Shown here: positions 3,225-63,954 of the stretch, piece after piece
Position numbering within the stretch: position 1 is the stretch's first letter
How the letters are laid out: each line of letters opens with the position of its first letter
Program-made: the position numbers and the translations under genes
Virus record (IMG/VR): IMGVR_UViG_2858635475_000003
Coordinates: 1,400 to 65,399 of that record
DNA: 64,000 bases
Reading direction: 5' to 3' (one strand)
From: a virus
The notes under the pieces: model-generated
What the model saw: only the letters and a program-made list of their open reading frames with translations
Told to the model about the DNA's origin: nothing
The model's database searches: none

Positions 3225-3911
3225 TTATCCGAGAATGTCAGAAAAATCTAACTGGCTTGCGAGTTGGCTCGCGACATAACCACCCCATTGTTTTGCGATC
3301 GCCTTTGCATGGCCTGGATGTAACTTGGATCTAGCCATTCTACGAACTTCCGGATCGCTTGTCGGAGCATGTCGATGGACACTCTCTCTCGCTGTTTTTC
3401 CATCCAAAGTGCCGGTTCGCGTGAGCTTCGGCAAACCGCCTTCTGTCCACCAGCATGTCGCCTTCTTCTCGTTATCGGGACCATTTTCATCGTCACCGAA
3501 CCACCACGGTTGCACGGTCTGACATGGTAATTTTTCAACACCGCTCATGATCTGCGCATATCGCAACATCACGGGGTTTTCGTAAGCCACGTAACGTACA
3601 GGACAGCGTTCTCTCAGGTCATATAGATCCCATGCCGCTTGCCCCATTTTCACCCAACGGTCGATGTTCAGACCGCCCCGTTTATCCATTCCGTTGAAAA
3701 GGTGTTTTGAACTGGAATTTGCCATGAAAGTGCATGTTGGATGGAAAATTGCTAAATCCCAACCGTCGAACATCACGTCCCACCAGTTGCCCTGATAGTG
3801 TGGTCCCGGCACCTGCGTAGGAGACAGATCGCAGGACATCGCATCATAACCTTCGGCTATGAAGGCATCTCGTAACGTTCCCGAATATTCACCGCCGATT
3901 AAAACTCGCAT
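3225..3911 (-). CDS. putative DNA (cytosine-5) methyltransferase-like protein with C-terminal DFSDILG tail
   Basis: Start inferred at the internal Met (MRVLIGGEYSG, resembling C5-MTase motif I). PTCTF resembles motif IV (PCQ-F) and YENPV resembles motif VI (ENV). Ends ...QLDFSDILG*. Confidence 0.5.
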   Translation of the reverse strand: MRVLIGGEYSGTLRDAFIAEGYDAMSCDLSPTQVPGPHYQGNWWDVMFDGWDLAIFHPTCTFMANSSSKHLFNGMDKRGGLNIDRWVKMGQAAWDLYDLRERCPVRYVAYENPVMLRYAQIMSGVEKLPCQTVQPWWFGDDENGPDNEKKATCWWTEGGLPKLTRTGTLDGKTARESVHRHAPTSDPEVRRMARSKLHPGHAKAIAKQWGGYVASQLASQLDFSDILG

Positions 3912-3921
3912 AACACCATAT

Positions 3922-6039
3922 TCAACAATTTGTTGATTTTGTAAACGACGAAAGATAGAGATCGAGCGCTGTTTCCCGCTTTCCCCATCCCATGTTCCTG
4001 AGAATTTCGTAGGCTTCTTCGATGTAGCGCTCATGATCCACGTCCGCGGGCACAAACAGATCGTCCGGCAATGTCATGATTGGCCGGCAGCCGTCTGACC
4101 TCGAAACCTTGGCTCGGTTGCCGGTCTTGGCGTGCGGCTTGCCGCGCATGATCGGAGCACCGTCCTTCGCCCAATAGAACCGAACCGTTTTGCCGAGATA
4201 TTGACCGTTCCAGTCGCCGCCGCCCTTGGCCTTGATGACACGGACAAACCCGCGCACGTCAGGGTAATTCCGGATGAAATCCTCGATCGGAATGCCGTCA
4301 ACCAGAAATGCCAGGATCGCATCTCCGCACACCGTCATGTTCGGGTTCTTTTTCATTTGCTCGAACGACGGGCTGTATTCGGGAGAATCCTTCATCAGGA
4401 ATTTGCGCAAACCCTCGAGCTCGATCCCGGCCAGGAGCGGGTCGTCTTCCTTCAGTTTGTTCCGCCAGTGGTTCGCAATGTACCCCTTGCGCTTGGCCTT
4501 ACCATCGGGCTTGATCGCCAGGTAGAAGTTGACATCGCGGTTATAGATCGCCTTGTATTCAGCACCTTCGAGGATGAAACTTGTCGTGTTTTCCCACCAC
4601 TCGATAAGTTCTTTGAGGAAGCCGCCTGCCGGCCGGTCGCCCTTCATCCCTTCGTAAAGACGACGCGGTATCTTCATGACCACGCCGTCAGTGTTCGCCG
4701 AGACGATCCGGATACCGGCAAGTTCTGCGCGCTCGATCAGCATCAACAATGTTAGCTGACCGGTCAGCGTCGTAGCAATCATCAGGTGTGGAGCAAACAG
4801 AACGCTGTAACGGCTCCCGAGCTTGCCATATGGACCGTTCAGACCAACCTTTCGGCCATCCGACCGAACCTTGAAGAATAGTTCTTTCTCGCGGTCGCCG
4901 GCATCACGAGCGTCGTTCGAACGCTTCTTGTCTGCCATGCGCTCGGCTTTAATGCCGCCGTAGACAGGCTGGAATTTTGGGCCGACCGCTTTCGGGTAAA
5001 GGCCGAGCTTCAGGATGATAGAAGGGTACTGAGAGCCTACGTCGAAGTCGACAAGCTGCCAGTCGTCATCCGACTCCTCGACGCGGCATTTTTCCTGCGA
5101 ATGCAATCCGCCGATACCGAGCTTGTAGGTGGACTGCCCGATCTCGATCTTGAACTTTTTGAATTCGTCGGGGAACGGCACAGAGCCTGTGTCGGTGACC
5201 TCGATATCGGTCTCTCGAATGACCTTCAAAACGTTCTGTAGCAGCGGCGTTTTGAACTCTATGAAGTCGGGAACCTGGTATCGAAACTTGTAGCCGCCCT
5301 TGAACTTGGCTTTCTGAACCTGCTTTTTGATAAGACGCTCGACGCCGATCTTGATCATGCGCTCGCCCGTTTGCGCGTCAGACAGAGAGCGGGCATCGAT
5401 CCCGTAGATTTCGCCGATCGACTCGCGAAGTTCGAGCGCCTGTTTGCAATGTGAGTAAAGATTTGCGGTCGCGGGGCAGTCCGAATTTCGGCAATAGTCG
5501 TTCAGTACGTCCATCTCGTCGTGGGTGAGATCGGCATCGGGGTCTACGGGCAGGTCTTGGAGGCGCTTCGCGTGCAAGCGACCTGCAAGCGTCTTGAGGC
5601 TCGCACTACCAGAGGCGAAAACGTTCTCCTGCTCGTCGTCATCATCGGCACCGGTTCCAACGGAAGGGTTAGTGTCGAAAAGATCGATGTGATCCACGTA
5701 GGACGGAACGACGATCCCAAACTCGCGCTCGCAGTCCCACGGTTTTTTCCGCTTTTTGATAATCCAGTCAGAGAGTGCCTTCAGGTCCGCATTGCTCGCA
5801 CCGTTGAGCGCGTACAGCAGAACCATCATGTCGTAGTCCCGGCTATTGAAGCCGACCACAGTATACTTCTTGAGAATGCGCCTCACGCGCAGCGGATCGA
5901 AATCAGCGCGCTCGCTACGCTCGTAACCGATCGACCGGCCGTCCTCGGTCAGGAATGCTACATAGAAGTAATTCCGGTAGCATTCCAAGTCGAAGAAGGC
6001 GATCGGCCGCTCAGTTTTTGTCCTGACTTCTCTGGCCAT
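3922..6039 (-). CDS. DNA polymerase, family B-like, with 3'-5' exonuclease domain
   Basis: Exo I FFDLE near the N-terminus. Motif A-like DVGSQYPSIIL (cf. DxxSLYPSII) and motif C-like SANTDGV (cf. YGDTDS), in the canonical order. Confidence 0.75.
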   Translation of the reverse strand: MAREVRTKTERPIAFFDLECYRNYFYVAFLTEDGRSIGYERSERADFDPLRVRRILKKYTVVGFNSRDYDMMVLLYALNGASNADLKALSDWIIKKRKKPWDCEREFGIVVPSYVDHIDLFDTNPSVGTGADDDDEQENVFASGSASLKTLAGRLHAKRLQDLPVDPDADLTHDEMDVLNDYCRNSDCPATANLYSHCKQALELRESIGEIYGIDARSLSDAQTGERMIKIGVERLIKKQVQKAKFKGGYKFRYQVPDFIEFKTPLLQNVLKVIRETDIEVTDTGSVPFPDEFKKFKIEIGQSTYKLGIGGLHSQEKCRVEESDDDWQLVDFDVGSQYPSIILKLGLYPKAVGPKFQPVYGGIKAERMADKKRSNDARDAGDREKELFFKVRSDGRKVGLNGPYGKLGSRYSVLFAPHLMIATTLTGQLTLLMLIERAELAGIRIVSANTDGVVMKIPRRLYEGMKGDRPAGGFLKELIEWWENTTSFILEGAEYKAIYNRDVNFYLAIKPDGKAKRKGYIANHWRNKLKEDDPLLAGIELEGLRKFLMKDSPEYSPSFEQMKKNPNMTVCGDAILAFLVDGIPIEDFIRNYPDVRGFVRVIKAKGGGDWNGQYLGKTVRFYWAKDGAPIMRGKPHAKTGNRAKVSRSDGCRPIMTLPDDLFVPADVDHERYIEEAYEILRNMGWGKRETALDLYLSSFTKSTNC

Positions 6040-6452
6040 CAGATGTCGTCGAAGTCATTCGCGACTGTGACAGGCGCAGCAGAAATCCTTTGTAGGACTT
6101 CTGCTCTCACAACACTGTGGAACCTTACTCGGTCTTCTCGTGTCCGCATGTCGAAGCGAGAGTCGAAAAGCGCTTTCGCGCCGTATGCGATGGCGACTTC
6201 TGAAAGGAAAAAGGCACGGTCATTGACCGCGATTACATTGATGCTACCGCGGCGCCATGACTGCAGGGGTGACTCGTATTCAACTTCGATATCAGGTTGA
6301 AAACCCGCTCTAAGGAGAACCTCGTCGGAAGGAACGAGACACAGAAAATCAATGTCGTTACCCTTCCCGCAAATAAGGGTTGACCCAACCGTGCACACAT
6401 TTTCAACGGGCACCGATAACTCTTTCGCAATCTGCGTCTCTGTTGTCATCAC
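6039..6452 (-). CDS. nucleotidyltransferase-fold protein with DFDDI C-terminus
   Basis: GSTLICGKGNDIDFLCLV matches the minimal nucleotidyltransferase G[SG]...DxD signature. Ends ...VANDFDDI*. Start overlaps the polymerase stop. Confidence 0.5.
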   Translation of the reverse strand: MMTTETQIAKELSVPVENVCTVGSTLICGKGNDIDFLCLVPSDEVLLRAGFQPDIEVEYESPLQSWRRGSINVIAVNDRAFFLSEVAIAYGAKALFDSRFDMRTREDRVRFHSVVRAEVLQRISAAPVTVANDFDDI

Positions 6453-6515: not shown

Positions 6516-7193
6516 TCAAATTTCTTCGTCATCGTCGATAGAAGGTGCCTTCTTCTTGGCAGGCTTGCCGCCGAGATCATCATCGTCGTCATCGTCGCCG
6601 AGGTTTTCAATTTCGTCGTCGTCGATGCCGCCACCGGCAAATTCCTCGCCCTTCTTGAAGTACTGAAGCGCATCGAGAGTGGTGAAAATGCCGTTGCCGC
6701 CCTTGTCCTTGGCCTTGATGGCGTAAAGGTGGAAATAGGCGATCGCGTAGTAACCCGAGCGAAAAAGGTCTTCACCTTCGTCCTCGATGTCAATGTCCTC
6801 ACCGCGGCGGTTTTTGTACTTCGGCTTTCGGTCGTTGGTCAGGCGCAAATAGCGCATGCCCTCGTAACCGTCACGCACATCACCGTCATCGGTGACATAC
6901 TTGTCGCCATCGAACAGCGGCCAGCGGCCTTTCGGACCGTCGCCCATTGCTTCCTTGAGGTTCTTCAGTTCCTTGCCAGGCCACTCGGTGGAGCAAAGAT
7001 GACGAATGGCATCGTTGATCACCTTGATGCTGGCCTTACCGTCTTCGGTCGAAGGATCGATAAGACCATTGGTCCTGTATTTCAGAGCGCCGCTTTCAAA
7101 GGATTTCGTTTTCTCGAACCCTTTGAAGTAGCTTAGCCGCACCATAACTTTGATGGTGCCCTTCTCGGCGTTGAAAGATGGTTTGAATCCCAT
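6516..7193 (-). CDS. phage single-stranded DNA-binding protein, T7 gp2.5-like (DUF2815-type) with poly-acidic tail
   Basis: Size and composition resemble gp2.5-like SSBs. The C-terminus is extremely acidic (GDDDDDDDLGG...SIDDDEEI*). Sits next to a DUF2800-like nuclease, as in many phage replication modules. Confidence 0.5.
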   Translation of the reverse strand: MGFKPSFNAEKGTIKVMVRLSYFKGFEKTKSFESGALKYRTNGLIDPSTEDGKASIKVINDAIRHLCSTEWPGKELKNLKEAMGDGPKGRWPLFDGDKYVTDDGDVRDGYEGMRYLRLTNDRKPKYKNRRGEDIDIEDEGEDLFRSGYYAIAYFHLYAIKAKDKGGNGIFTTLDALQYFKKGEEFAGGGIDDDEIENLGDDDDDDDLGGKPAKKKAPSIDDDEEI

Positions 7194-7237: not shown

Positions 7238-8482
7238 TCAGTCGTCGAAATCTTCAAAATCCTCATCGAGATTTTCGAAGTCTGAGGTGACCAGAAGCGC
7301 TGGTCGCGCATCCTCGATCGAGACGATCGAAGGAGTTGGTTCGCCTCCGACGACAAAATCTCTTGGGAACTTCCCCTTCCCTACGATCTTGTCCAGCATT
7401 GCGGGCGTTTTCAACTTTTTGGTGATTATCTGGTCGTCCTTAAAGCCGTGCTTCTTGAGCCAGGCTTCCGACTGTTCTTCGTCAGCGTGCTTGCGGTTCG
7501 AGCGCCGGCCGGCGACGATCTTCAGCCCATACTTCTCACCATCACCGGTGCGCACGTCGGCAGCGACCGAAGCTTCCACGCGGGTGAGAAACTGCCGAGC
7601 GAGCGACAGGTGATCGTAGATCGCTTTCTTGCGGGCGGTCGTGAGACCTTCCACGTCAGGAAAGGTAATCTCGACGCCGAAGTCCTCGTACTCGTCAAGG
7701 TTCTCAAACTCGATACCAGCGAATTCGAGCGCCCAAGCTTCATATTCAGGACAGGCACCTTCCACCTTGGCGGCGGGGCACCAGGTGCACCCATCTTTCG
7801 AGGGAATGCATGGGGCGTTCGGATCGAACGTCAGCTTTGCACGTTCGCGGATCTCGGCAGCCTTCTTGCGAAGCTCGTCGATCGAGATCACCCACTCCCC
7901 GCCACCGCGACCATTTCTCGGCTGGTCAATGATGATTCGGACGCGCTTGATGTGGGGGTGGGTATCTTTGATCTGCTCCCACAGTGCATCGAAGTAGATG
8001 ATCTGTTGGGTGTTGCCGACTGCTTCGACAGGAATCCCCTTGCCGTATTTCAGGTCGGACTGAACCGCCTCGTCGCCCTGATCCGGAGCAGGAATGACCG
8101 CACAATCGAGCGTACCTTTCTGAGGTTCGCCGTGATCGTTCAGACCGGTAATGTGAGTGATGTCTACGCGACTTTCGATGATCATCTCACCGGGAAATTC
8201 GCGGATGCGGTCGATCCCCGGCTGCAGCGCATCGGCCATATCATCGTCACAGAGATAGATGACGCCGTTGACCTTCACCTCTGTTCCGACGAAATCGTGA
8301 GCATCGAGACCAACTGAGAGCGCCAGTTCTCGAATGAGGTGAGCGGCTGTGCCTTCATCGGCGGCAGGGTTGACCTTCCTGTCGTCCTTGTCGAGACCGA
8401 GCTTCTTGCACCGGTTCAGCGCACCGGGACATGTAGTCCATCTTTTCGCGTCGGAAGGCGCATTGCGAGCGTGTCCGGTCAT
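7238..8482 (-). CDS. Cas4/RecB-like PD-(D/E)xK exonuclease (DUF2800-type) with Fe-S cysteine cluster
   Basis: N-terminal Cys (TTCPGALNRC), nuclease core (D...DLKYGK) and C-terminal CTWCPAAKVEGAC: a 1+3 cysteine arrangement as in Cas4/AddB. Acidic C-terminus DEDFEDFDD*. Confidence 0.6.
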   Translation of the reverse strand: MTGHARNAPSDAKRWTTCPGALNRCKKLGLDKDDRKVNPAADEGTAAHLIRELALSVGLDAHDFVGTEVKVNGVIYLCDDDMADALQPGIDRIREFPGEMIIESRVDITHITGLNDHGEPQKGTLDCAVIPAPDQGDEAVQSDLKYGKGIPVEAVGNTQQIIYFDALWEQIKDTHPHIKRVRIIIDQPRNGRGGGEWVISIDELRKKAAEIRERAKLTFDPNAPCIPSKDGCTWCPAAKVEGACPEYEAWALEFAGIEFENLDEYEDFGVEITFPDVEGLTTARKKAIYDHLSLARQFLTRVEASVAADVRTGDGEKYGLKIVAGRRSNRKHADEEQSEAWLKKHGFKDDQIITKKLKTPAMLDKIVGKGKFPRDFVVGGEPTPSIVSIEDARPALLVTSDFENLDEDFEDFDD

Positions 8483-9162: not shown

Positions 9163-9750
9163 TCAGATTTCTTCGTCGTCGGAGCCGGCGTCGTCGGAAC
9201 CAGGAACAGCCGTGAGGCGACCCTTGCCGAAACCGTTGTCAGCTTCCTTCTGTTTGTTGACCCAATCGACGAGACGCTGAAGGTCTTTCGCGGGCACGTC
9301 AGCGACCGTCGCGCCTTCCTTGCCGACGAGCTTGGCCAGAGCGCCCTTGATCTTGGTCTTGCGGGCGTCGGTTTCCGGATCGCCTTCAACCTTGGCGAAT
9401 TCGCCGAGCCACGGTGCGACGATCTTCATCTTGACCGTCTCGTTGGTCAGCTTCGGCGCCGTGTCTTCTTCGCCCTCACCTTCGCCCTCGCCCGTTTCGG
9501 CGCCGGTCTCAGTCTTCGTATCTTCCTTCTTGGCGCGGGTGCGCTTGGGCTTGTCTTCGCCTTCACCGGCCGACGCCGACTTGCCGCCAGCAGCGAGCAC
9601 CGCATTCAGCTTTTCGGTATGGTCGTTCTGCGCTTCGGTGAGCGCCACGACGGCGCTGGTCAGAGCTTCGATCTTCGCTTCGAGAGACATTTCGTTCCTT
9701 TCAGGGTGACATTGAATGGTAAGATCGTGCGTTCGCCGCTTACGATGCAT
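9163..9750 (-). CDS. hypothetical acidic low-complexity protein ending DDEEI
   Basis: Start placed at the Met directly after the dyad motif (ATCAACtttttGTGGAaattgataATG); an alternative start at 9690 has an AAGGA SD. Contains GEGEGEGEE and ends GSDDEEI*. Confidence 0.5.
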   Translation of the reverse strand: MHRKRRTHDLTIQCHPERNEMSLEAKIEALTSAVVALTEAQNDHTEKLNAVLAAGGKSASAGEGEDKPKRTRAKKEDTKTETGAETGEGEGEGEEDTAPKLTNETVKMKIVAPWLGEFAKVEGDPETDARKTKIKGALAKLVGKEGATVADVPAKDLQRLVDWVNKQKEADNGFGKGRLTAVPGSDDAGSDDEEI

Positions 9751-10290: not shown

Positions 10291-12747
10291 ATGCTCCATG
10301 AAATTGAACCATTTGCGCGAGCAGGTTTTGCGATCCACTGGCTGCACCCGAAATCCAAGCGGCCGATCGGCAACGATTGGGCTTCGAAGCCAGTAAAGAC
10401 GCTGGACCAACTGCGCAGCAGCTACGAGGCCGGCGTATCCGGTAAAAACGTTGGCGTGAGACTCGGCAAGTGGTCGAAGGTCGGTTCCGATTTCCTGCTC
10501 GTCATCGATGTCGACATCCGCAAGCCGGAACTGGCGAAAGAAGCCTTTGCAGAACTAAAGCGCCTGTTTCCGGAATACGCGACGTATCCATCCGTGATCT
10601 CGGGATCGGGCGGCGCGAGCCGGCATTTCTACATCCTGACATCTCGTGAGTTCCCGTCGAAGCAGTTGGCTCACTCTGCACACCAATCCCTCGTTTGGGA
10701 TGAGAAGCAGCAGAAGGACGTGAAAAAGTGGGATTGGGAGATCGAGCTTTTCGGCACCGGCAAACAGGTTGCCATGCCGCCATCGATCCACCCGATCACC
10801 GGCAAACCCTATGTTTGGGAGCGCCCGTTCGACCTGGACGACCTCGATCTTGGCTTGGGTCCGTTCGTTGATTCGGATTACGTTGCCTCGCTAATCGACT
10901 ATGACGAGGAACGCGAGAACGCACCGGTCAATCCTGATGCCATTGAACCGCTCGGACTGACACCGGATCAGGTGCGCGAGATGTTGTCGAAGATCCCGAA
11001 TGAGGATTTCGACTACGAGGAATGGCTGAACGTCATGGCCTCTGTCCAGCATGAAGCGCAGGGACACCCTCTCTCGATCCGCAAGCAATTCTACGAGGTG
11101 TTTCGCGAGTGGTCAGCGAAATCATCCAAGCACGACGACGAGACGACCAAGGCCAAATACAAGAGCTTCAAGAACAGCCCGAACCGCAGGCAGCGCACGA
11201 TGCGCTCCATTCAGGCGCAGGTCCGCGAGATCGAGCTTGACGAGCAAATGGACGACCTCGGCGATGAGATTGATGATCTCGGGCCCGAGGAAGATGAGGA
11301 CGACGACGGCGAATTCGATGACGTGCTCGGCGGCGACCCCGACAAGCCGTCGAAACGAGAAATCAGACTGCGCAAGGCCGAGGTCGAGCACGCCTTCGGC
11401 ATTGTCCCGAAGCGCATCCAGCGCCTGAACGCAAAGCACGCCGTCACGTTTTTGAGCGGCAAGTGCGTGATTATCACCGAAAATTCTGACGGAACCACCT
11501 CTTACGGCACCCCCGGTGAGCTTCATAATTGGTACGAGAATGATCGCGTGGCGAGTGAGAAGGCCACGCAGCCTGTGTCAAAAGCCTGGATGCAGCATAA
11601 GGGGCGGCGCCAGTACCCGAACGGTGTCGTGTTCTCTCCTGGCAAGGAGCGGGACGGTTACTTCAACCACTGGAAAGGGTTCGATGTGGAGCCCGACCCC
11701 AAGGGTTCATGTCAAATGTGGCTGGACCACCTGCGCGAGATCATCTGTAACGGCAATGAAACGCACTACCGCTATGCGCTCGGCTGGTTCGCCCACATGA
11801 TCCAGAAGCCTTGGGAGAAACCAGGTGTCGCCATGGTGCTCCGCGGCAAAAAGCGGATCGGTAAGGATACGATCGCCGACTACTTCGCCGGCCTGATCAA
11901 GCGGTATCACGTCACGGTAGCAAATCAGGACCAGATGGTCGGCAAGTTCAATGCCCATCAGGAACGGTGCCTGCTTCTCCACGTGCAAGAAGGTTTTTGG
12001 GCCGGTAATAAGCAGGCCGAGGGTTCGCTGAAATACCTGATCACGTCCACCTCGGTGCTGATCGAGCCCAAGAGCGTCAACGCCTTTACGGTCGACAGTT
12101 ACCTGCGCCTTTTCATCTCGTCGAACGAAGATTGGGTGGTGCCAGCCACCGCGGACGAAGGCCGGTATTTTGTTCTCGACGTTTCCGACAAGCGAAAAGA
12201 CGACCACAAGTATTTCGGCGCGATGAAGCGCGAGATGATGAATGGCGGTCTGGAAGCCCTGCTCCACTACCTACAGAATTACGATCTCAGCAAGTTCGAG
12301 GTCCGCAAGGTGCCGGATACCAACGCGCTGGCCGATCAGAAAATCCAAGGCTTGAAGAACCTCGACAAATGGTGGTTCTCGATGCTCGAATCCGGCGAGC
12401 CCGAATTTGAATTCCAGAACATCAAGGGTATCGTTGCCGACTGGAATACGGAATCGATCGTTGTCGACCGAGACGATTTTCGCAATGTCTATTCAGCCTG
12501 GATGCGACACCAGCGTTATGACGGCAGTGAGCTTGTGAAATTCATGATCGGCAAGCGTCTGCGCGAACTGTGCCCGCAGATCGAGGACAGGCGGCGCCGG
12601 GACGGCGCGAAGCAGATTTGGACCTACGTGATTCCGAGCCTGCCGCAGTGCCGAGCGGAGTTCAGTAAATTCATGAATTCCGAGATCAAGTGGGAGACCA
12701 CTGATGTGCCTGAGATTATTCTGGAAGACGATTTCGACGATTTATAA
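10291..12747 (+). CDS. bifunctional primase-polymerase / D5-P4-type helicase
   Basis: PrimPol motifs (LLVIDVDIRKPE; SGSGGASRHFYIL). C-terminal P-loop NTPase (MVLRGKKRIGKDT). Ends EDDFDDL*. Confidence 0.8.
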   Translation: MLHEIEPFARAGFAIHWLHPKSKRPIGNDWASKPVKTLDQLRSSYEAGVSGKNVGVRLGKWSKVGSDFLLVIDVDIRKPELAKEAFAELKRLFPEYATYPSVISGSGGASRHFYILTSREFPSKQLAHSAHQSLVWDEKQQKDVKKWDWEIELFGTGKQVAMPPSIHPITGKPYVWERPFDLDDLDLGLGPFVDSDYVASLIDYDEERENAPVNPDAIEPLGLTPDQVREMLSKIPNEDFDYEEWLNVMASVQHEAQGHPLSIRKQFYEVFREWSAKSSKHDDETTKAKYKSFKNSPNRRQRTMRSIQAQVREIELDEQMDDLGDEIDDLGPEEDEDDDGEFDDVLGGDPDKPSKREIRLRKAEVEHAFGIVPKRIQRLNAKHAVTFLSGKCVIITENSDGTTSYGTPGELHNWYENDRVASEKATQPVSKAWMQHKGRRQYPNGVVFSPGKERDGYFNHWKGFDVEPDPKGSCQMWLDHLREIICNGNETHYRYALGWFAHMIQKPWEKPGVAMVLRGKKRIGKDTIADYFAGLIKRYHVTVANQDQMVGKFNAHQERCLLLHVQEGFWAGNKQAEGSLKYLITSTSVLIEPKSVNAFTVDSYLRLFISSNEDWVVPATADEGRYFVLDVSDKRKDDHKYFGAMKREMMNGGLEALLHYLQNYDLSKFEVRKVPDTNALADQKIQGLKNLDKWWFSMLESGEPEFEFQNIKGIVADWNTESIVVDRDDFRNVYSAWMRHQRYDGSELVKFMIGKRLRELCPQIEDRRRRDGAKQIWTYVIPSLPQCRAEFSKFMNSEIKWETTDVPEIILEDDFDDL

Positions 12748-12812
12748 TCAACTGTTTGTTGATTATGTAAACTGCTTGGGGTATGGTCATCGCAGTCACA
12801 AAGGAGATTGCG

Positions 12813-14219
12813 ATGACAGTTACTGGAAAAGATTTGATTGCGGCGGGCGCCGTGCCTGGAAAGTGGTTTCCGGAAGCTCTGCGTCTGATAAACGAAGAAG
12901 GTCTGACCATTCCGCAAGCGGTCGCGAGATGCGAACCCGCTCCTGCGTTGCCCCTGAGCCCCGCCCATTCGAAACCGATTTACGAAAACATCCGGTCCGA
13001 GAATGAGGCCGAAATGGCGAATGTTCTGGCCGTAAAACGCACTATGCAAGAAGTGATGCGCACGCCGGTCACGATCGCAGGCGCGATTATGCCAGATGCT
13101 TGCCCTGCCGGCCCGCTCGGAACGATTCCTGTCGGAGGCATCGTATCATCGACCGAAATCCATCCCGGTATGCATTCCGCCGACATCTGCTGCTCAATGG
13201 CAATCACTATCTTCGACGCCGCGGCGGATCCGAAAGAGCTTCTCGATGCTGTGAAAGAGGTTACCCACTTCGGACCAGGCGGTCGTCAGTTCGGCAACCA
13301 TGCGCTGAAAGCGGGAGAGTTTCGAGGCATCACTGACAGCGACAACCCCTTTCTTCAGGAGGCGAAAAAGTTGGCCTCGTCACATTTTGCCACACAAGGT
13401 GACGGAAACCATTTTGCCTATGTCGGGCGAATGAAGTCGGACGGTAAGGTTGCATTGGTGACCCACCACGGCTCTCGCGGTCCCGGCGCTATGCTCTACA
13501 AAGCAGGCATGCGGGTGGCCGAAAAGAACACTCGCGAAGTCTCACCTGAGACCCTGAAACAGAACGCCTGGATCAAGTCCGACAGCCGCGACGGCGAGCT
13601 TTATTGGGACGCCTTACAACATATCCGCAGGTGGACCAAAGCCAGCCATTTCCAAATCCATGACGATGCGGCGAAACTGTACCGTATGAACGTCAAGTCG
13701 GCCGGCTTCCGCACTCTGATGATCGAAGATCGATTTTGGAACGAGCACAACTTCGTTTTCAGGAAAAGCGATGGATTTTTCTATCACGCAAAGGGCGCGA
13801 CCCCTGCCTTCCTCAATTGGGCTGATGATGCCGGCGATCGAACCATCATTCCCTTGAACATGGGTGAGCCGATCTTGATTGTGCGCGGGCGCGATGCGCC
13901 CCATTCACTCGGGTTCTCGCCTCACGGCGCCGGCCGAAACTTCTCCCGCACTCAACACAAGCGTCTTATGGAGGGTCGCACCGACGAGGAAATCTTTGCC
14001 GAAGAAACCGCTCACATCGATGCACGCTTCTTCCTGGGCATCACCGATATTTCAGAGTTGCCGAGCGCATACAAAAACGCAGCGGCAGTGCGGGCGCAGA
14101 TCAACGAGTTCGGTCTGGCCGATATCGTTGATGAGGTGATCCCGTATGGCTGCATTATGGCCGGCGACTGGGAGCGGGATGCACCATGGAAGAAATCGCG
14201 GAAAGGCGGTGAAGCATGA
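12813..14219 (+). CDS. rtcB: RtcB-family RNA 3'-phosphate ligase
   Basis: RtcB signature blocks GDGNHF, HHGSRG and HGAGR. ATG at 12813 has an AAGGAG SD; an alternative upstream start at 12783 lies nearer the dyad motif. Confidence 0.85.
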   Translation: MTVTGKDLIAAGAVPGKWFPEALRLINEEGLTIPQAVARCEPAPALPLSPAHSKPIYENIRSENEAEMANVLAVKRTMQEVMRTPVTIAGAIMPDACPAGPLGTIPVGGIVSSTEIHPGMHSADICCSMAITIFDAAADPKELLDAVKEVTHFGPGGRQFGNHALKAGEFRGITDSDNPFLQEAKKLASSHFATQGDGNHFAYVGRMKSDGKVALVTHHGSRGPGAMLYKAGMRVAEKNTREVSPETLKQNAWIKSDSRDGELYWDALQHIRRWTKASHFQIHDDAAKLYRMNVKSAGFRTLMIEDRFWNEHNFVFRKSDGFFYHAKGATPAFLNWADDAGDRTIIPLNMGEPILIVRGRDAPHSLGFSPHGAGRNFSRTQHKRLMEGRTDEEIFAEETAHIDARFFLGITDISELPSAYKNAAAVRAQINEFGLADIVDEVIPYGCIMAGDWERDAPWKKSRKGGEA

Positions 14220-15859: not shown

Positions 15860-17002
15860 TTATTCGCCCGCTGGAACCGCAAGCTTGGCGCCGCCCATAT
15901 CCAGAGCAGGAAGTCCTTGATCCGTTTGCAACATCTTCGCCTTGGAGAGAGCAGTGACGCGGGGTCGAACGATTCTACGATATAGCCAATCTTCGGCTAT
16001 CCCGAAAAGGACACCTCCCGTGAGGCTGACCGTAATCATTATCGTAAATCGTTGAACCTCAGTGAGCGACGAGGTCATTTCTCCGACCAGAAAAATGATC
16101 GGGAAGTGGATTAGATATATCCCATACGACCAGCTACCCATCGAATTAATGTGTTTGGACACACGGTCGATCGGGTTCCTGATATTCGAAGCCGAATAGG
16201 TGATCCCAAGGCACGTGACAAGCAACAAGAATTGCCACAGAAACTGGTGCCGTTGTGCGAGTATGGTTACCACGCCCACCAAGGTCAGGAACACGCTCAG
16301 CGGGCCGTGCCTACCCTGTTTGGCAAGCGCCAGAAGCGCACCGCCGATGAAATACAAACCATAAGGGGACTGCCACACCATGGCCCCGAACAAACCATCA
16401 GGTGGCTCGGGAAAATTCGGGTACACGTAAAGAAGGGTTGCCGCCCACGCAACCATGAGCCAACCGTAAAACTGCCGCGGCATCAACATGATCAACGCGG
16501 TGATGAAGTAGAAATAGACCTCAAAATTCAACGTCCAGTACGGAACGCCGCTCCAACTGGCGTGTGATTTGCCCATCGGAAGCAAAAGAATGGAAGGGTC
16601 GAAAGAAATCTGTTCAGGTCGCACAGTCCCTCCCCCGACCATCATTGCGGTCCCGAGGACAAGAGCCACAAGATAACCGGGGTAAATGCGAGCAAGACGA
16701 AGGGTGATGAATGTGTTGACGCTAGAATGACGGGTCAGACACATAACGTAACCCGATATCACGAAGAAAATTAGCACTCCGACATTGCCAACATTCAGCG
16801 TCAGCCAATATTGATTGACAGGTTCCCACGGTCCATGTGGATTGGCCGGCGACGACCAGGCGAAAAGTGACGCGTGGAAGACAAGAACCAGGAGAGCGGT
16901 GCAAAATCTAAGACCTTGAATGCCGACGAGTTTACCGTCCCCCGCGCTCTTACCGTAATCCCCTATTGCCAAAGTCCCGCCTCCCGAGCCATTTATTAGC
17001 AT
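15860..17002 (-). CDS. acyltransferase family 3 membrane protein (candidate O-antigen/LPS acetyltransferase, lysogenic-conversion moron)
   Basis: Acyltransferase_3 N-terminal signature (GLRFCTALLVLVFHAS) and about 10 predicted TM helices. Oppositely oriented to the flanking phage genes. Confidence 0.75.
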   Translation of the reverse strand: MLINGSGGGTLAIGDYGKSAGDGKLVGIQGLRFCTALLVLVFHASLFAWSSPANPHGPWEPVNQYWLTLNVGNVGVLIFFVISGYVMCLTRHSSVNTFITLRLARIYPGYLVALVLGTAMMVGGGTVRPEQISFDPSILLLPMGKSHASWSGVPYWTLNFEVYFYFITALIMLMPRQFYGWLMVAWAATLLYVYPNFPEPPDGLFGAMVWQSPYGLYFIGGALLALAKQGRHGPLSVFLTLVGVVTILAQRHQFLWQFLLLVTCLGITYSASNIRNPIDRVSKHINSMGSWSYGIYLIHFPIIFLVGEMTSSLTEVQRFTIMITVSLTGGVLFGIAEDWLYRRIVRPRVTALSKAKMLQTDQGLPALDMGGAKLAVPAGE

Positions 17003-17138: not shown

Positions 17139-17696
17139 CTAAGCCCCAAGCACGTCCTCGAATTGAGCCATAGGGTTGGTGCGGCCATAAACTCTGAAAT
17201 TCACGTTACCGACCTTCCGTTCAAGACCGGTCGGCTGCCACCCGCCTTTTGTGAATGCCCGCTCAATCTTTCGGATTGGGCTCGCGTGCTCCCGCGACAA
17301 TCCGTTTGGGTCGACGCCAAAAAGGTTCTGCAAGACTGCCGCTGCGGTTATGGTGTGGCGCCGCGACTTTAGGAACTCGCGAACAAGCTTCTGATCCACA
17401 TTCCCAATGTCAAGCGGTTCTATGACCGATGCTTGATGGCCGGAAGGATAGTACATCCAATGTTGACGACCATCGATCCGTGCTCTGTCGCCACCCTTAA
17501 GCCATCCGCAATATGTCGACAGCACTATGCTCATTCGGTGCGCAACGTGCACGTCGTATTCGCTTGGGTCGCAACCAAGTGCTTCAACCCAAACCTGCTC
17601 GCAATAAGTTACGTCCTTGTCGCGCAGCCATTCTCGGATCTTATGAACCTGTTCGGATAGCTCCGACGTGTGATTAAGGGTCTTCATTTTTCTCAT
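17139..17696 (-). CDS. hypothetical protein ending QFEDVLGA
   Basis: 185 aa with no recognised domain. C-terminal F-E-D-V-L-G-A joins the recurrent tail-motif family. Lies next to the iteron region. Confidence 0.55.
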   Translation of the reverse strand: MRKMKTLNHTSELSEQVHKIREWLRDKDVTYCEQVWVEALGCDPSEYDVHVAHRMSIVLSTYCGWLKGGDRARIDGRQHWMYYPSGHQASVIEPLDIGNVDQKLVREFLKSRRHTITAAAVLQNLFGVDPNGLSREHASPIRKIERAFTKGGWQPTGLERKVGNVNFRVYGRTNPMAQFEDVLGA

Positions 17697-22375: not shown

Positions 22376-22555
22376 ATGACGAAAATTGAAAAGTGGGCTG
22401 CGCGTGTTTTTGATGACGCTAACCGCCTTCTAGCTGAAAAGATTTGTGTAGGTGAAGTGGTCGCACGAATTGAGGGAGATCGTCTGTTGAGACGGCAAAA
22501 TCCTAAGGCAAATGCGCGACTTTTCATTGCCCCAACAGGGGAATTTTTCGAATGA
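22376..22555 (+). CDS. hypothetical small protein
   Basis: GGGAG SD with an ATG at 22376. Confidence 0.35.
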   Translation: MTKIEKWAARVFDDANRLLAEKICVGEVVARIEGDRLLRRQNPKANARLFIAPTGEFFE

Positions 22556-24894: not shown

Positions 24895-25026
24895 CACGGC
24901 TCGGAAAACTCAAACGCCCCGTGCCGGCGAAAACCGAAACGAGGCGTTCTGAGGGGTCATGGTGATAGGAGGCGGGGACCTGCCTTCCGAGACACGAGCA
25001 ACATACCAGAAACCGGATCGAGCGCA

Positions 25027-25077: not shown

Positions 25078-25114
25078 CGGATTAAAGATTGAACGCGAGC
25101 CCGAGGAGTCGGCG

Positions 25115-58362: not shown

Positions 58363-58763
58363 CACGGAGACTCCGGTGGAGCGTATGTTGCCGGGATTGG
58401 CAGAAGCGCCAGCTTCTCATCGTCTGCGTCCAACTGAAGCACCATGGCGGTGATCGTCAGATCGTCAGGCGGCTGAATGTTGTCGAGATAATAGGCTTCA
58501 CCCGCTTCCACGGAGATGATCGCATTGCGTACCGGCTGCGGGATTTCTTCGCGCCAGATGATAATGCGAGGGGTGATGTCTTCACGCTCTGCGTAATTGA
58601 AATTCGTGCCCTTCATATCCCCAAGGGCTTGGAACTTGGTGTGCACGCGCACGAAGCACGGGACCGGCTCAGCGTCGATTGACGCGAGATAGAGCGCGGG
58701 CACGCGCAAATGGAGTTGCACGGCCCGCCTCGCATTCCGCTTAATGTCGCGGAAAGATGCCAT
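58362..58763 (-). CDS. head completion/adaptor-like protein (hypothetical)
   Basis: Position. Confidence 0.45.
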   Translation of the reverse strand: MASFRDIKRNARRAVQLHLRVPALYLASIDAEPVPCFVRVHTKFQALGDMKGTNFNYAEREDITPRIIIWREEIPQPVRNAIISVEAGEAYYLDNIQPPDDLTITAMVLQLDADDEKLALLPIPATYAPPESP

Positions 58764-59095
58764 CAGATTTCTTCGTCCTTGGAAGCAGCCTTTGCGGCGC
58801 CTTTCGGTTTTCCCTGGGGGTCACCTTCCGCGCCGGAAGCAGGTTTCGCTTCTTCAGCAGCAAGCTGCTTTTCGACGTTGGTTGGTGCATTTTCCTCACC
58901 CGACTGAACCTTGGCGATAGCGACTTCTTCCTTCGTGGCCTTGCGGGCCGCGCCGAGAGCGATCAGCTTTTCCAGTTCTTCGTCGGTGGCATCGAACACC
59001 GAAACTCGGGTTTTCGTGGAAGCCGGCACGACGTTCTTTTCGCCGTCAACGCGGCGATGGATGGTGGTGATTGCATAACCTTTTACAGCGGCCAT
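58763..59095 (-). CDS. small Ala/Lys/Glu-rich head-module protein ending KDEEI
   Basis: Dyad motif and SD upstream; C-terminal DEEI. Confidence 0.5.
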   Translation of the reverse strand: MAAVKGYAITTIHRRVDGEKNVVPASTKTRVSVFDATDEELEKLIALGAARKATKEEVAIAKVQSGEENAPTNVEKQLAAEEAKPASGAEGDPQGKPKGAAKAASKDEEI

Positions 59096-60812: not shown

Positions 60813-62147
60813 TTAAGCGGCAGCGGCGTCCCGCGGTCCTTTGGTCAGACCGAGTACCCGTTCGTGACGCGGAACTTCAGCCTGTTCGCCTTCACCAGGA
60901 ACGCCGACATCGGCCTTCTTGGTCTCGTCCATGGCTTCCTTGAAGTTCTTGCCGGTGGCATTGGTCTTCGTGTCAGCCGCAGCGGCTTTTTCTTCCGGCA
61001 TGTCCGCCAGCATCTCGGTGACCGTTTCAGCATCGAGCGATGCGAACTTGTCGCCGGTTGCCATCTTGAGGGCGATTACGGGGCGCTTCTTGCCTTCCTC
61101 GGAATTGACGATCGCCGAGATGCGAGCGCGTTCCGCGGTAGCACCTTCCTTGGCGCCCTCGATCTTGCCAACCTTCACACCTTCAGCGTGGCCTTCGGCG
61201 CGAGCGGTATCAACAGCAGCCTGATCGACTGCCGCGTCATTTTTCGTCTGTCCAGACATGGTTTCGTCTCCTTCATCTGAGGACAGTTCTGCCGCAAATG
61301 CGGCGACGGAGTCGTCAAGCGTACCGATCGCATCGGCCAGCCCGTTCGACGTTGCTTGCGAGGCAGTGAATGTGAGGGCTTCGGTGTCCCGAACAGCCTT
61401 TTCATCCATGCCTCTATTCCGCGCCACGGTGGACACGAAAACTGCGCCAAGCTCATCGATGCGAGCCTGGATGCGTTCTTTGACTTCGGGTTTCAGCGCC
61501 TCATAGGGATTGCCATCGACCTTGTGGGCGCCGAAGTGAATGAAGGTGACCTTGTAGCCGCGCTGCTCCATGGCGGCCGAGATATCGATGTGCGCCGTGA
61601 CCACGCCGATCGAGCCCACGCCGCCAGTGCGCGAGACCGTGATGGAGTCTGCGACGGACGCGATCGAATAGGCTGCTGAATAGGCGCTCTCCATCGCGTA
61701 AGCACGAACCGGCTTCGTCCCGCGAGCCGCGAACATCTTGTCCACGAGATCGAAGTTGCCGGCGACCTCGCCACCGGGGGAGTCGATGATCAGCGCAATG
61801 CCGCGGACACTGCCGTCCTCCAAGCCGCGTTCGAACGCCTTTTGGATATAAGCGTAGCCGGTTGCCCAAGATCCGAAAGCATAAGGGAAGTCGTGCAGAA
61901 GCACGCCTTTGACCGGGATCATCAGCACGCCGTCTTTGACGACATACGGTCGCAGCATCGAGCGGAACGAACCAGGCTCACCCCACCAGTTCTCGTCGAC
62001 AGACGCCATCTCGGCCTTGAATTCCGCCGAGTTCATCTGCGCGGCAACCTGATGCAGCGAGGCTTCGAAGATACCCTGCATTTCCGGTGCGACGATGGAA
62101 GGCTTCTGATCGAAACGGGCGAGAAGCGGGTTCATGTTATTCGGCAT
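60813..62147 (-). CDS. prohead protease (S49/SppA-ClpP fold) fused to scaffold-like C-terminal domain
   Basis: S49 peptidase core (IALIIDSPGGEVAG...SAAYSIASVAD...). Ala/Glu-rich C-terminal region. Start at the ATG 5 nt before the portal stop. Confidence 0.75.
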   Translation of the reverse strand: MPNNMNPLLARFDQKPSIVAPEMQGIFEASLHQVAAQMNSAEFKAEMASVDENWWGEPGSFRSMLRPYVVKDGVLMIPVKGVLLHDFPYAFGSWATGYAYIQKAFERGLEDGSVRGIALIIDSPGGEVAGNFDLVDKMFAARGTKPVRAYAMESAYSAAYSIASVADSITVSRTGGVGSIGVVTAHIDISAAMEQRGYKVTFIHFGAHKVDGNPYEALKPEVKERIQARIDELGAVFVSTVARNRGMDEKAVRDTEALTFTASQATSNGLADAIGTLDDSVAAFAAELSSDEGDETMSGQTKNDAAVDQAAVDTARAEGHAEGVKVGKIEGAKEGATAERARISAIVNSEEGKKRPVIALKMATGDKFASLDAETVTEMLADMPEEKAAAADTKTNATGKNFKEAMDETKKADVGVPGEGEQAEVPRHERVLGLTKGPRDAAAA

Positions 62148-63954
62148 CGCGGCCTCGCTTGTCTGGATCTGGATGAACGGCATCCATGAAGTCGTTCGCG
62201 AGCGTTCCATTCTCGCTGCCAAGGATGTCTGAGAAATCGTGCTTCGCGGCTTCGCTGACGTTCTTTTCACCGGAAGCGGCGTTTACGGTGTTGTCCTGCA
62301 CATCATCGATGTAGGTGAGATCGTAGTGTTCGAACTCTTTCTTCTCACGTGCGACCTGACGCAATTCGCGGCGCCAGTCGCTACCGTGGATGCGGGCAAG
62401 CTCGCGCTCGTAGGTTGAGAGCTTGTGCTTGATGAGAAGAACGGAGGACTGAGTTTCCTTGAGCGGATCAATCTGACCACGGGCCGCGCCGATCCACTCG
62501 CAAGCCGTGATCGCTTCCATGGCGAGCGGCGCGTAAAGCCATGCGCTGTCAGCACCCATGCGCTTCGGCAGAGACTTGATGACGCCCTTGTTGATCGCTT
62601 CTTCAAGCCACAGGCGGTAGACGATGTTGGCGAACCGATCGGCGACAACCTTTTTGCGGCCGACCATGAACTTCCAAGTCTCGGTCATCGCAGCGCGGGC
62701 CGAAGAATAGTTCGTCTCGGTGTAATCCTTCGAAAGCTGTTCGTAGGATACGCCGAGCAGCGCTGCGATGTTGCGCAGAATGGATTGCTCGAACTCCATG
62801 CCAAGCGGCGCACCCTGACCGGGAGACTGCATCTTGAGTTTGGAGCCGAGCGGCAGTGCCGGAATACGGACGCCGTTGAGCTTCAACTGATCTGCGGCAG
62901 CCATAAAGTCCGACATGACCTCAAGGTGCTGGCCGAGACCCTGCTTGATCGCCGTGTCGGCATCTGTATCAGACGCCATCAGGCGAGCGAAGATATCCTG
63001 CGCAGGCAGATCGGATTCCACGACAGCGGCATATGTCGCCTGAACCACGGCGTTCTGAAGCGCCACGTCGCGGAACTGGCGAGCCATGTGCGTTTCGCGA
63101 ATGCCGGCAGCCATGTCGGACATGCCTCGGGTCTGGTTCGGACGCATCTGCTCGAACAAATGGATGAACTGAGGACGACCCCACCAGAGTTTCGCCGGCA
63201 GGCGCTCCCACTGATAGGCTTGCGCCAAATAGACATCGCGAGGATTCGCCTTGCGAATATGGTAGTGGGTCGGAACGTGATCCTGATTGACCTCAACACC
63301 GCCAATGATGAAAGCGTTCGAGAGCTTGTCCATCGGGGTGGAGAGCCGATCCACGTCGATCATTCGGATTGAGGTGCTGAACGGGCGATCGGATTTTGAA
63401 GACCGGTCCCAATCGACAGCGGCAAGCACTTCACCGCACATCAGGTAGGTGCCGACAGCCTGGCGAACCAACATCGTGAAGGAGTTGCGTCGGGTGGAGT
63501 CGATGTAATTCGCATCGGACTCAGCCCAAAGGCCGAACTTTTCTTCGACTTCTTCCTGAAACTCTTCTTCCCACTTCTCGTCAAGCTTGCCCATCAGCAC
63601 TTGGCTGTTCGGCTTGGCGTTCAGAAGGAACTGGCTGCCAACGATGTTGTCCTGATGAAGGCGCTGGCCGTTCTGCGCGTAGGCGTCGTTCTGCAGGATG
63701 TTGCGAATACGAGCGTCGGAAAGGCGTTTCGCGGGCAGGATGTCCTGATCGGCGGTGCGGTTTCCCGGCTGCCAGAGCGCCAGTTCACGCGAAAACCGGC
63801 TTGCGCCCTCGTAGGCTTCGCCCGCAATGGCTGTTTCTTTACCCGCGCCTGACGCCACCCTGATAACGTCAGGCGCGGGAGTGCTCGAAACACCTTGGGA
63901 GGAGTCAGGACCGAGCACATCTGTGAAATCTTTTGAAGATGCCATCAAAACCAT
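62137..63954 (-). CDS. portal protein (lambda gpB-like) carrying two copies of the DF[ST]D[IV]LG motif
   Basis: 605 aa upstream of the S49 protease, the lambda B-C order. KDFTDVLG at residues 8-15 and HDFSDILG 27 residues before the C-terminus. Confidence 0.7.
   Translation of the reverse strand: MVLMASSKDFTDVLGPDSSQGVSSTPAPDVIRVASGAGKETAIAGEAYEGASRFSRELALWQPGNRTADQDILPAKRLSDARIRNILQNDAYAQNGQRLHQDNIVGSQFLLNAKPNSQVLMGKLDEKWEEEFQEEVEEKFGLWAESDANYIDSTRRNSFTMLVRQAVGTYLMCGEVLAAVDWDRSSKSDRPFSTSIRMIDVDRLSTPMDKLSNAFIIGGVEVNQDHVPTHYHIRKANPRDVYLAQAYQWERLPAKLWWGRPQFIHLFEQMRPNQTRGMSDMAAGIRETHMARQFRDVALQNAVVQATYAAVVESDLPAQDIFARLMASDTDADTAIKQGLGQHLEVMSDFMAAADQLKLNGVRIPALPLGSKLKMQSPGQGAPLGMEFEQSILRNIAALLGVSYEQLSKDYTETNYSSARAAMTETWKFMVGRKKVVADRFANIVYRLWLEEAINKGVIKSLPKRMGADSAWLYAPLAMEAITACEWIGAARGQIDPLKETQSSVLLIKHKLSTYERELARIHGSDWRRELRQVAREKKEFEHYDLTYIDDVQDNTVNAASGEKNVSEAAKHDFSDILGSENGTLANDFMDAVHPDPDKRGRDAE

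Follow-up and report, generated by a model that had tools for sequence, protein, structure and literature searches.

A seven-residue peptide, D-F-x-D-[IV]-L-G, recurs on otherwise unrelated proteins encoded by a viral DNA stretch of 64,000 nucleotides (positions 1,400 to 65,399 of the IMG/VR record IMGVR_UViG_2858635475_000003; this whole stretch is referred to as the window). The window has a G+C content of 55%, is a Casjensviridae-like siphophage or prophage, and yielded 95 gene calls (20,069 amino acids). When it was scanned in six frames for F-x-D-[IV]-L-G, 10 matches were obtained, all of which lie in coding frames according to gene calls and homology searches. Two of them are carried by the portal protein, whose gene (62137-63954, minus strand) belongs to the lambda family PF05136 (Pfam E 2.8e-81, match over residues 55-430). 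The N-terminal copy, DFTDVLG, occupies residues 9-15 of 605 and is followed by PD (63910-63930, minus strand), and the second copy, DFSDILG, lies 26 residues before the C-terminus (62218-62238, minus strand). One further copy, EFDDVLG (11311-11331, plus strand), sits at residue 342 of 818 of the primase-polymerase/helicase (10291-12747), where an acidic linker separates the PriCT-2 domain from the DUF5906 domain. The other 7 of the 10 copies end 0-1 residues ahead of a stop codon.

These C-terminal copies are found on enzymes and on small orphan proteins. The 228-residue protein of gene 3225-3911 (minus strand) ends in QLDFSDILG (tag at 3228-3248). A sequence-only reading of the window had called it a C5-methyltransferase-like protein; its sole match is PHROG 757, which is annotated as a DNA methyltransferase, and it has no Pfam match. 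A 185-residue orphan (17139-17696, minus strand) ends in QFEDVLGA (17145-17165) and has no match in Pfam or PHROG. Further tagged orphans cluster with an N6/N4 DNA methyltransferase in one “island” at 37.2-40.1 kb, all on the plus strand. They are a 68-residue protein (37238-37444) ending in DFSDVLG (37421-37441), a 79-residue protein (37441-37680) ending in PFDDVLG (37657-37677), and a 78-residue protein (39829-40065) ending in DFSDILG (40042-40062). The methyltransferase itself (37957-39555) has a bipartite tail, DFDDILG-EALPIKSTNSGDT-FHDILG, closed by a final A (39472-39549, with the copies at 39472-39492 and 39529-39549).

Such a number of copies is far above what composition predicts. The expected count of F.D[IV]LG is 0.043, and the mean over 2,000 shuffles was 0.036, with no shuffle exceeding 2; the Poisson P is 5e-21. 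The strict pattern had no match in any other frame of the window in the six-frame scan. Synonymous codon choice varies among the copies (TTT/TTC, TCT/TCG/TCC/TCA, GAC/GAT, ATT/ATC/GTG/GTC/GTT, CTC/CTT and GGA/GGC/GGG/GGT), so selection acts at the level of the peptide and not of the DNA, and a DNA-level repeat, promoter or terminator is ruled out. The full copies listed in the sequence-only reading were all recovered in real reading frames; its list had missed the copy in the primase-polymerase linker. Two of its other entries are not instances of the motif. The tandem GDFSKLGDFSKLG in a “BRCT” protein (24959-26467, about residue 130) contains GDFSKLG, without the D-[IV]-L core, and NDFDDI at the end of gene 6039-6449 (6042-6059, minus strand) is not a full motif and was assigned to a separate class of acidic tails. 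Looser internal matches in 22552-23841 (residue 69, QFLDVFG) and 36526-36813 (residue 47, DIKDVLG), of uncertain significance, were left out of the ten.

The portal gives the clearest indication of where the motif comes from. Its N-terminal copy, at residues 9-15, lies upstream of the wing domain and inside the first ~20 residues of a PF05136 portal, and almost all of the best 120 portal homologs have a related motif at residues ~5-15. The close clade has DF[SAT]DVLGP, and DPEI.ELLG, FDDLFGG and DIEELLG are found further out among these homologs. Conservation reaches at least 90% for L14 of the window portal in an alignment of 24 portals, and for G15 in both alignments. Portals of enterobacterial lambda-like prophages start with MK[ST]PALLGPDG. 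The N-terminus of lambda gpB reads MKTPTIPTLLGPDGMTSLREYA and then GYH, and its motif MKTPTIPTLLGPDG, IPTLLGPDG, is placed inside a 22-residue leader that, by the RefSeq annotation, is absent from the mature portal. The shared core is phi-x-x-phi-L-G, often followed by P-D, as in lambda TLLGPDG, enterobacterial PALLGPDG and DVLGPDS in the window. By position and consensus, the heptapeptide thus represents the leader motif of lambda-family portals in its local form. An earlier aside on the N-terminal processing of lambda gpB proved apt, as the portal alignments and the lambda annotation make the motif homologous to a conserved element within the leader removed at maturation. Removal of this leader (20-22 N-terminal residues) depends on gpC.

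The second portal copy is confined to the closest portal clade (P0001-P0014, P0016, P0022), mostly as a terminal DFADILG[EA]. In an AlphaFold2 (AF2) model of the portal monomer, built from a 116-sequence alignment (mean predicted local distance difference test score, pLDDT, 79), residues 8-14 form a short helix with a pLDDT of about 56, residues 21-47 are disordered, and the region of the C-terminal copy has a pLDDT below 50. The monomer model leaves both copies on low-confidence tails and gives no sign of a docking site in cis. In lambda, 21-22 residues are removed from gpB, with an effect on the interaction properties of the portal described as “not known”; the initiator is formed by B together with the S49 protease C and the scaffold Nu3, and incorporation of B needs Nu3 (PMC3224144). 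The structure of the lambda virion leaves gpB unmodelled at residues 1-23 and over its last 20 residues, and the gpB wing domain begins at residue 24 (PMC10721106). General portal architecture, though not a statement of that structural paper, leads us to infer that the two portal ends face the inside of the capsid. No lambda protein other than the portal was found to bear a leader-like tag. LADIFG of lambda Nu1, tried as a second tag, was rejected as helix 1 of the Nu1 helix-turn-helix, which we take to be its place in the known Nu1 structure.

The window portal is 98% identical to the portal of a chromosomal prophage of Agrobacterium tumefaciens and 70% identical to that of Rhizobium phage RHph_X2_30 (L001), the closest annotated relative. 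The Agrobacterium prophage (L188; CP049216.1, 731-753 kb) adjoins a bacteriophytochrome gene, and its gene order is int–alpA–terS–terL–W–portal; the window is therefore probably a prophage as well, with its genes for the small and large terminase (TerS, TerL) just past coordinate 64000. RHph_X2_30 has 11 copies of the motif at equivalent places with diverged flanks. Its carriers are the portal at both ends, the primase-polymerase linker (AEFDDILG), the PHROG 757 protein (the 3225-3911 ortholog, ending in EFSDVLG), a doubly tagged methyltransferase, and several small genes in a row, among them the counterpart of 39829-40065 (ending in DDFADILG). Five tagged genes follow one another in consecutive order. 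The IMG/VR contig L007 repeats the 37-40 kb island and keeps the tags of both orphans 37238-37444 and 37441-37680. A codon-restricted scan of IMG/VR for DFxD[IV]LG followed by a stop was tried for mapping and dropped, since only one of 18 loci was a true relative (L007) and the rest were chance-like.

The N6/N4 methyltransferase of the window has the beta-class motif order, and the enzyme at the corresponding position in RHph_X2_30 has the opposite order, so the two are non-orthologous. Their best BLASTP segment is the shared bipartite tail of ~30 residues (E 2e-6; L001 19335-19412), with the consensus DF[DE]DILG-x3-P[IV]-x-ST-x-SG-x-F-x-D[IV]LG, in which the spacer P[IV]-x-ST-x-SG is also conserved. 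The methyltransferase body thus appears to have been exchanged and the tail retained. In the family of 3225-3911, only the 88%-identical homolog among the 120 listed has the tag, and most of the others end in (Q/K)LAxxAA. This AA end looks like an ssrA/ClpX-type signal and may be a degron that was replaced by DFSDILG in this lineage. Because one tail is found on non-orthologous enzymes and the tag occurs in only one of 120 listed homologs, the tag is a portable add-on kept by selection. Enrichment, synonymous codon variation and conservation between diverged flanks together uphold the proposal that the motif is a linear peptide for docking or tagging that these proteins have in common, with selection acting on the protein. 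Very probably, D-F-x-D-[IV]-L-G is a short linear docking motif, an acidic amphipathic mini-helix on flexible ends and linkers, and the lineage version of a portal-leader element phi-x-[DE]-phi-L-G (often with P-D) at residues ~5-15.

Two observations on these genes stand apart. The N6/N4 methyltransferase carries a LAGLIDADG endonuclease domain (residues 88-189) inserted between motif IV (DPPY) and the rest of the protein, and the TerL of a related phage (L186 6578-9718, 1,046 residues) likewise has a LAGLIDADG insert. An unannotated open reading frame (ORF) of ~90 codons that ends in GFDDVLG lies in a gap of the GenBank annotation of RHph_X2_30 (L001 1245-1527), which illustrates how the tag might help in finding genes.

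The tag also follows the portal of the phage in which it is found. In 80 IMG/VR loci around related portals, 17 of 7,954 ORFs other than the portal had C-terminal tails matching the leader of their own portal at 5/7 residues or better. The same level was reached against the leaders of other loci in 102 of ~428,000 ORF-leader comparisons, so that the own-leader rate is ~9-fold higher. Locus L027, with the portal leader EIDALLG, encodes an integrase ending in DDVAELLG and an AlpA protein ending in DVADLLG. In L029 (leader DPEVEELLG), AlpA ends in DPEVADLIG, in L051 (TFEEMLG) the integrase ends in DPFLDMLG, and in L058 (EFDELLG) AlpA ends in DEFDELVG. In L062, the leader ELSELLS and the integrase end DDLSDLLS have in common a change of the final G to S. 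The co-variation was reproduced in a second, independent sample, made up of 80 prophage loci taken from bacterial genomes. Mesorhizobium sp. AR07 combines the portal leader DLTDLLG with an integrase ending in KDTDLTDLLG (a 7/7 match), L145 combines DLDDLLG with an integrase ending in DLADLLG and an AlpA ending in DVADLLG, and further own-portal matches come from Bradyrhizobium, Sphingomonas and Asticcacaulis loci. Pfam identities among the carriers comprise four integrases, five AlpA proteins and one YpsA/SLOG protein. In Rhodobacter phage RcPescado, TDL[ST]D[LI][LF] is present on the N-termini of the portal and TerS, on the integrase, on the N6/N4 methyltransferase gp52 and on gp54.

Recent copying does not account for these matches. 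In L121, identical peptides are encoded by unlike codons (GAT CTG ACA GAC TTG CTG GGC and GAT CTC ACA GAC CTG CTT GGA), and such synonymous differences even in identical peptides indicate that the matching is kept by selection. Related Rhizobiales hosts harbor phages and prophages with unlike variants, namely DFxDVLG, EIMELLG and ESAELLG in Rhizobiaceae and DLTDLLG in Mesorhizobium. Since the variants differ among phages of related hosts, the pattern favours a phage-encoded receptor that would co-evolve with the peptide.

The small terminase is a carrier of particular weight. DUF1441-type TerS, whose gene lies just upstream of that of GpA-type TerL, bears the motif at the very N-terminus, with a basic, AT-hook-like stretch after it. 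In the Agrobacterium prophage with the 98%-identical portal, the TerS N-terminus is MADIFDDILGSDNSPARSRGRPKG, starting with MADIFDDILG, and the portal leader is DFSDVLG. The corresponding pairs are MEDFDDIFGAPAKKRGRPKG and EFADVLG in RHph_X2_30, MTTDLTDLFAADE and DLSDLLG in RcPescado, MSYDDLFG and IFDDLFG in L185, MSIDEMLG and SVDEMLG in L035, and DDFEAMLG and TFEEMLG in L051. In L058 (SEFDELLG and EFDELLG) and L145 (MTDLDDLLG and DLDDLLG) the match is 7/7. On average, TerS shares 4.2/7 residues with its own portal leader and 3.2/7 with those of other genomes, and none of 10,000 permutations was as high, although this significance is inflated by the relatedness of the loci. By automatic calls, the presence of the TerS motif is associated with that of the portal leader only weakly (Fisher P 0.09), because one clade, with the leader [ED]-I-D-x-L-V-G, has the portal leader and lacks the TerS motif. 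Phages with leaderless portals have TerS without the motif; an apparent exception is L094, which was classed as leaderless and has EDEDILG on TerS. Given that clade and the leaderless phages, the portal copy looks ancestral, and TerS looks like one more acquirer. The Chi-like phage Siskin (L189), considered as a model system, was rejected, as its portal is leaderless and its TerS has no motif.

Which protein reads the peptide can be approached through the genes that vary together with the leader. The gene next to the portal (60813-62183, minus strand) encodes, by homology, an S49 prohead protease–scaffold, a homolog of lambda gpC/Nu3, and relatives have Peptidase_S49 on record. When portals of matched divergence (about 450-490 bits) are compared, the protease–scaffolds of leaderless phages all score 157-226 bits against the window protein, and those of leader-bearing phages all score at least 258 bits, typically 320-370. 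TerL scores of leaderless and leader-bearing phages overlap (577-720 vs 603-944 bits), and so do capsid-protein scores. The difference is centred on the N-terminal 95 residues of the protease (8.7 bits in leaderless phages vs 55.8), and the catalytic core gives 160 vs 241 bits. As this N-terminal segment is conserved only together with leader-bearing portals, the first ~95 residues (codons about 61863-62147) are a candidate peptide-binding domain. Taken with the complex of B, C and Nu3 in lambda and with the protease-dependent loss of the lambda leader, the correlation points towards the protease–scaffold as receptor, possibly through this segment. A C-terminal element of the scaffold, x-x-[ILV]-L-[GAS]-x-[YF], was examined as a further form of the motif and set aside; it is basic, not acidic, and by eye does not co-vary with the leader.

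The mechanism that we favour, with a probability of roughly 40%, is that the peptide docks on the protease–scaffold, recruits the portal and routes tagged enzymes into proheads. The peptide would bind the prohead protease–scaffold (60813-62183), probably through its first ~95 residues. The 12-24 copies on the portal would tie it to an initiator complex with the protease–scaffold, and the protease would then clip these portal copies off. On other proteins, the peptide would serve as a capsid-targeting tag, by which methyltransferases, integrases and small proteins would co-assemble into proheads; the tagged small proteins are probably anti-defence factors that would be delivered together with the DNA. 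Packaged and injected proteins are known from other phages, such as the methyltransferase DarB of P1 and the internal proteins and Alt of T4. The protease–scaffold was weighed above TerL because the correlation between leader and protease is in the data, because the lambda leader is proteolysed at prohead maturation, before packaging, because both portal copies would be on the interior side, and because the 3-5 tagged orphans beside the methyltransferase resemble known sets of injected proteins. In lambda, prohead maturation precedes packaging.

Several points weigh against this mechanism. TerS carries the motif in this lineage and in many relatives, where it co-varies with the portal, and as TerS is cytoplasmic and acts on DNA and TerL, a capsid-interior tag makes little sense there; it is mainly because the TerS copy is left unexplained that confidence is held to the level given above. 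AlpA/excisionase-like carriers are odd as injected cargo, the primase-polymerase copy is internal, and the tag of 3225-3911 takes the place of a possible degron end in AA. The correlation with the protease may be confounded by the shared descent of the leaderless clade. Literature searches, none of which was aimed at one, turned up no virion proteome of a tag-bearing phage. The sequence-only reading had offered capsid targeting or processing as one branch of its proposal, and that branch has gained from the portal-leader homology and from the way in which S49 protease–scaffold subfamilies go with the presence or absence of the leader, while a cytoplasmic carrier such as TerS does not fit it. 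Its description of the carriers as DNA-modification enzymes, orphans and the portal was too narrow, as the small terminase, tagged at its N-terminus, is a carrier too.

It is precisely TerS that is accommodated by a hub on the large terminase, in which the peptide docks on TerL or the holoterminase, TerS and the portal bind sequentially or exclusively, and enzymes are brought to the DNA about to be packaged, so that, for example, DNA would be methylated at the moment of packaging or excision would be coupled to packaging. The N-terminal motif of TerS co-varies with the portal leader (4.2 vs 3.2 of 7), TerL has two known partners, which are TerS and the portal, and every functionally assigned carrier acts on phage DNA. 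The genes int–alpA–(MTase)–terS–terL–portal are adjacent in these genomes, and TerL is present in every genome without being a carrier itself. Even so, such a hub seems unlikely, if worth keeping in view. In lambda the leader is gone at prohead maturation, before packaging, and the portal ends would face the capsid interior. Leader presence follows no TerL subfamily, one clade has the portal leader without the TerS motif, and it is hard to picture 3-5 small orphans all binding TerL. The known contact between lambda TerL and the portal uses the TerL C-tail (PMC3224144). GpA-type TerL proteins (L024-L188) have an amphipathic tail with the terminal pattern [DS]-[LF]-x-x-L-[AG]-x-x-L-[AGT], and lambda TerL ends in TLADYARALSGEDE; this tail, presumably the portal-binding one, resembles the motif superficially. 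It was rejected as an instance of the motif, since every family member has it, even those without a leader, and it shows no co-variation. The receptor could also be the portal itself, with a groove of the ring binding the peptide, its own leader and C-tail acting as cis or trans pseudo-ligands (in ring assembly or auto-inhibition) that are freed by proteolysis, and TerS and tagged enzymes docking at the portal vertex as SPP1 gp7 does. Ligand and receptor in one protein would explain the co-variation most easily, the portal-bound minor head protein gp7 is a precedent, and a contact between TerS and the portal would aid DNA delivery. This arrangement is nonetheless improbable, as cargo would be out-competed by 24 cis ligands, the groove would need access from inside and outside the shell, and the AF2 monomer gives no sign of docking (pLDDT about 56 and below 50), with the limit that a groove between subunits is invisible in a monomer.

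Outside the head genes, the peptide might recruit a host hub or chaperone that varies by genus, such as a GroEL paralog, the beta clamp, a partner of the single-stranded DNA-binding protein (SSB), or IHF/HU. Acidic-hydrophobic peptides at protein ends are a typical form of bacterial hub motif, differences between hosts could in principle account for the variants, and the lambda portal depends on GroEL/ES (PMC3224144). Closely related hosts have phages with unlike variants, each carrier matches its own phage, and Chi-like and other leaderless relatives manage without the motif, all of which make a host receptor quite unlikely. There is also no fit to QL[SD]LF, and the N-terminal and linker copies exclude an SSB-like need for a free C-terminal carboxylate. 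A different kind of function would be that of a degradation or processing signal read by the S49 prohead protease or by an AAA+ protease of the host, which would restrict the time at which early enzymes (methyltransferases, Int, AlpA, TerS) can act and, on the portal, would serve only leader removal. Such a signal would suit the replacement of the AA end in the 3225-3911 family, the proteolytic removal of the lambda leader, and the fact that leader presence follows the protease subfamily, and Int, Xis and CcrM-type methyltransferases are classic targets of proteolysis. Its probability is nevertheless low. With 0-1 residues after the G there is nothing left to cleave, and lambda is cut ~11 residues past the motif; S49 enzymes do not act as unfoldases, tags for ClpX and Lon are not typically acidic, and two copies on the portal and one in the primase-polymerase linker would be harmful. 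The idea that the peptide has no function, and reflects chance, compositional bias or a translated DNA-level repeat, is practically negligible in view of P about 5e-21, the absence of matches in non-coding frames, the synonymous codon differences, and the retention of the motif in relatives with diverged flanks.

A second class of C-terminal tails is present in the same genome and differs from D-F-x-D-[IV]-L-G, consisting of an acidic run that ends with I, V or L at the extreme C-terminus. It is found on the gp2.5-like SSB (6516-7193, PHROG 112; SIDDDEEI), on 9163-9690 (SDDEEI), on the head gene at the FI position (58763-59095; SKDEEI), on the primase-polymerase (10291-12747; EDDFDDL), on the Cas4-like nuclease (DEDFEDFDD), and on 6039-6449 (NDFDDI, 6042-6059, minus strand), as well as on the TerS of the sister prophage (L188 6314-6982; TTDDAI). 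The window loci listed for this class also include 7238-8482, 18526-19083, 37664-37948 and 2488-2706. The class is conserved in RHph_X2_30, and in phage Siskin a very regular D[DE]EDEV closes six proteins (TerS, primase, gp2.5, exonuclease, helicase and gp19). It is probably a hub tail of the T7 gp2.5/gp4 type that is here extended to packaging and head proteins. The tails EDDFDDL and DEDFEDFDD, which had been regarded as relatives of the motif, thus fall into a separate acidic class, and the earlier analogy with the C-terminal tail of SSB (SSB-Ct) and with gp2.5 fits this class of the genome, as seen in the DDDEEI end of its gp2.5-like SSB, and not D-F-x-D-[IV]-L-G.

The comparison with these tails is instructive. 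E. coli SSB ends in DFDDDIPF, which resembles DFDDILG. SSB-Ct (DDDIPF) and the tails of T7 gp2.5/gp4 share with the present peptide the design of acidic-hydrophobic flexible ends by which several proteins converge on one hub. However, they need a free C-terminal aromatic carboxylate and are borne by replication proteins, whereas copies of the present motif, which ends in L-G, are located at N-termini (portal, TerS), in a linker (primase-polymerase) and 20-26 residues from an end, and the gp2.5-like SSB (6516-7193) itself bears the other class of tail, SIDDDEEI. The beta-clamp-binding motif (Q-L-[SD]-L-F, Q-L-x-L-x-L) was rejected, as there is no Q and the position of the second leucine is acidic in 26/26 clade copies. 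An ssrA/ClpX-type degron, (L)AA at the carboxyl end, was rejected as well, since the tags end in [IV]LG with at most A, E or G after it.

Among head-assembly systems, the lambda gpB leader is alike in position, family (PF05136) and core phi-x-x-phi-L-G-P-D (IPTLLGPDG vs FTDVLGPDS in the window), with S49 protease and scaffold genes alongside. It differs in that the lambda motif is on the portal alone, whereas here it is also on TerS, methyltransferases, integrases, AlpA, orphans and the portal C-tail. The capsid-targeting sequence (CTS) of T4 (IPI-III, Alt) is the working analogy for the preferred protease–scaffold mechanism, being a ~10-residue peptide on unrelated proteins that is linked to a prohead protease and routes enzymes and anti-defence proteins into the prohead. 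In contrast to the present motif, it is strictly N-terminal and followed by a gp21 cleavage site, whereas 7 of the 10 copies here are C-terminal with 0-1 residues following. The two have no sequence similarity, the T4 portal and terminase lack a CTS, and the proteases differ (gp21 vs S49). The cargo-loading peptides of encapsulins are also short C-terminal tags on unrelated enzymes, which they load into an HK97-fold shell. Their GSL-type consensus is unmatched here, however, their receptor is the shell protein, and no portal, terminase or protease has a role; capsid-protein similarity does not follow the presence of the portal leader. P1 Dar and SPP1 gp7 are precedents, the one for a methyltransferase that is packaged (DarB) and the other for a minor head protein brought in via the portal (gp7), but for neither is a short shared peptide known that mimics the portal leader, and no sequence relationship exists. 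Full-text literature searches found no description of a peptide common to the portal leader, TerS and DNA enzymes.

The window also encodes an RtcB-like RNA ligase (12783-14219), a BRCT/ligase-like protein with the tandem GDFSKLGDFSKLG (24959-26467), and an O-acetyltransferase-like gene on the opposite strand (15860-16972), which may be a lysogenic-conversion gene.

These observations can be brought together in a broader, still tentative proposal, read from sequence comparisons. A general “address label”, specific to each phage, may exist in lambda-type phages of Alphaproteobacteria in the form of the portal leader peptide, which would be read by one component of head assembly or packaging and which any gene could acquire. 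Virions might then contain an integrase, methyltransferases and anti-defence proteins of their own; alternatively, DNA-modifying and recombination enzymes would be carried by the terminase motor. In either case the lambda gpB leader, without a function since the 1970s, would gain one, and temperate phages would prove to have a modular tagging system that brings integrases, regulators, DNA methyltransferases of several kinds and small orphan proteins to the head-assembly or packaging machinery. In annotation, an orphan that ends in the leader motif of its own portal is probably a virion- or packaging-associated factor. If the peptide binds the terminase, DNA modification and excision would be coupled to packaging. 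If capsid loading is true, the tag would be a 7-residue means of loading cargo into lambda-like capsids, and an integrase and protective methyltransferases would be delivered with the DNA, which would change the view of how lysogeny is established and how restriction is evaded in these phages.

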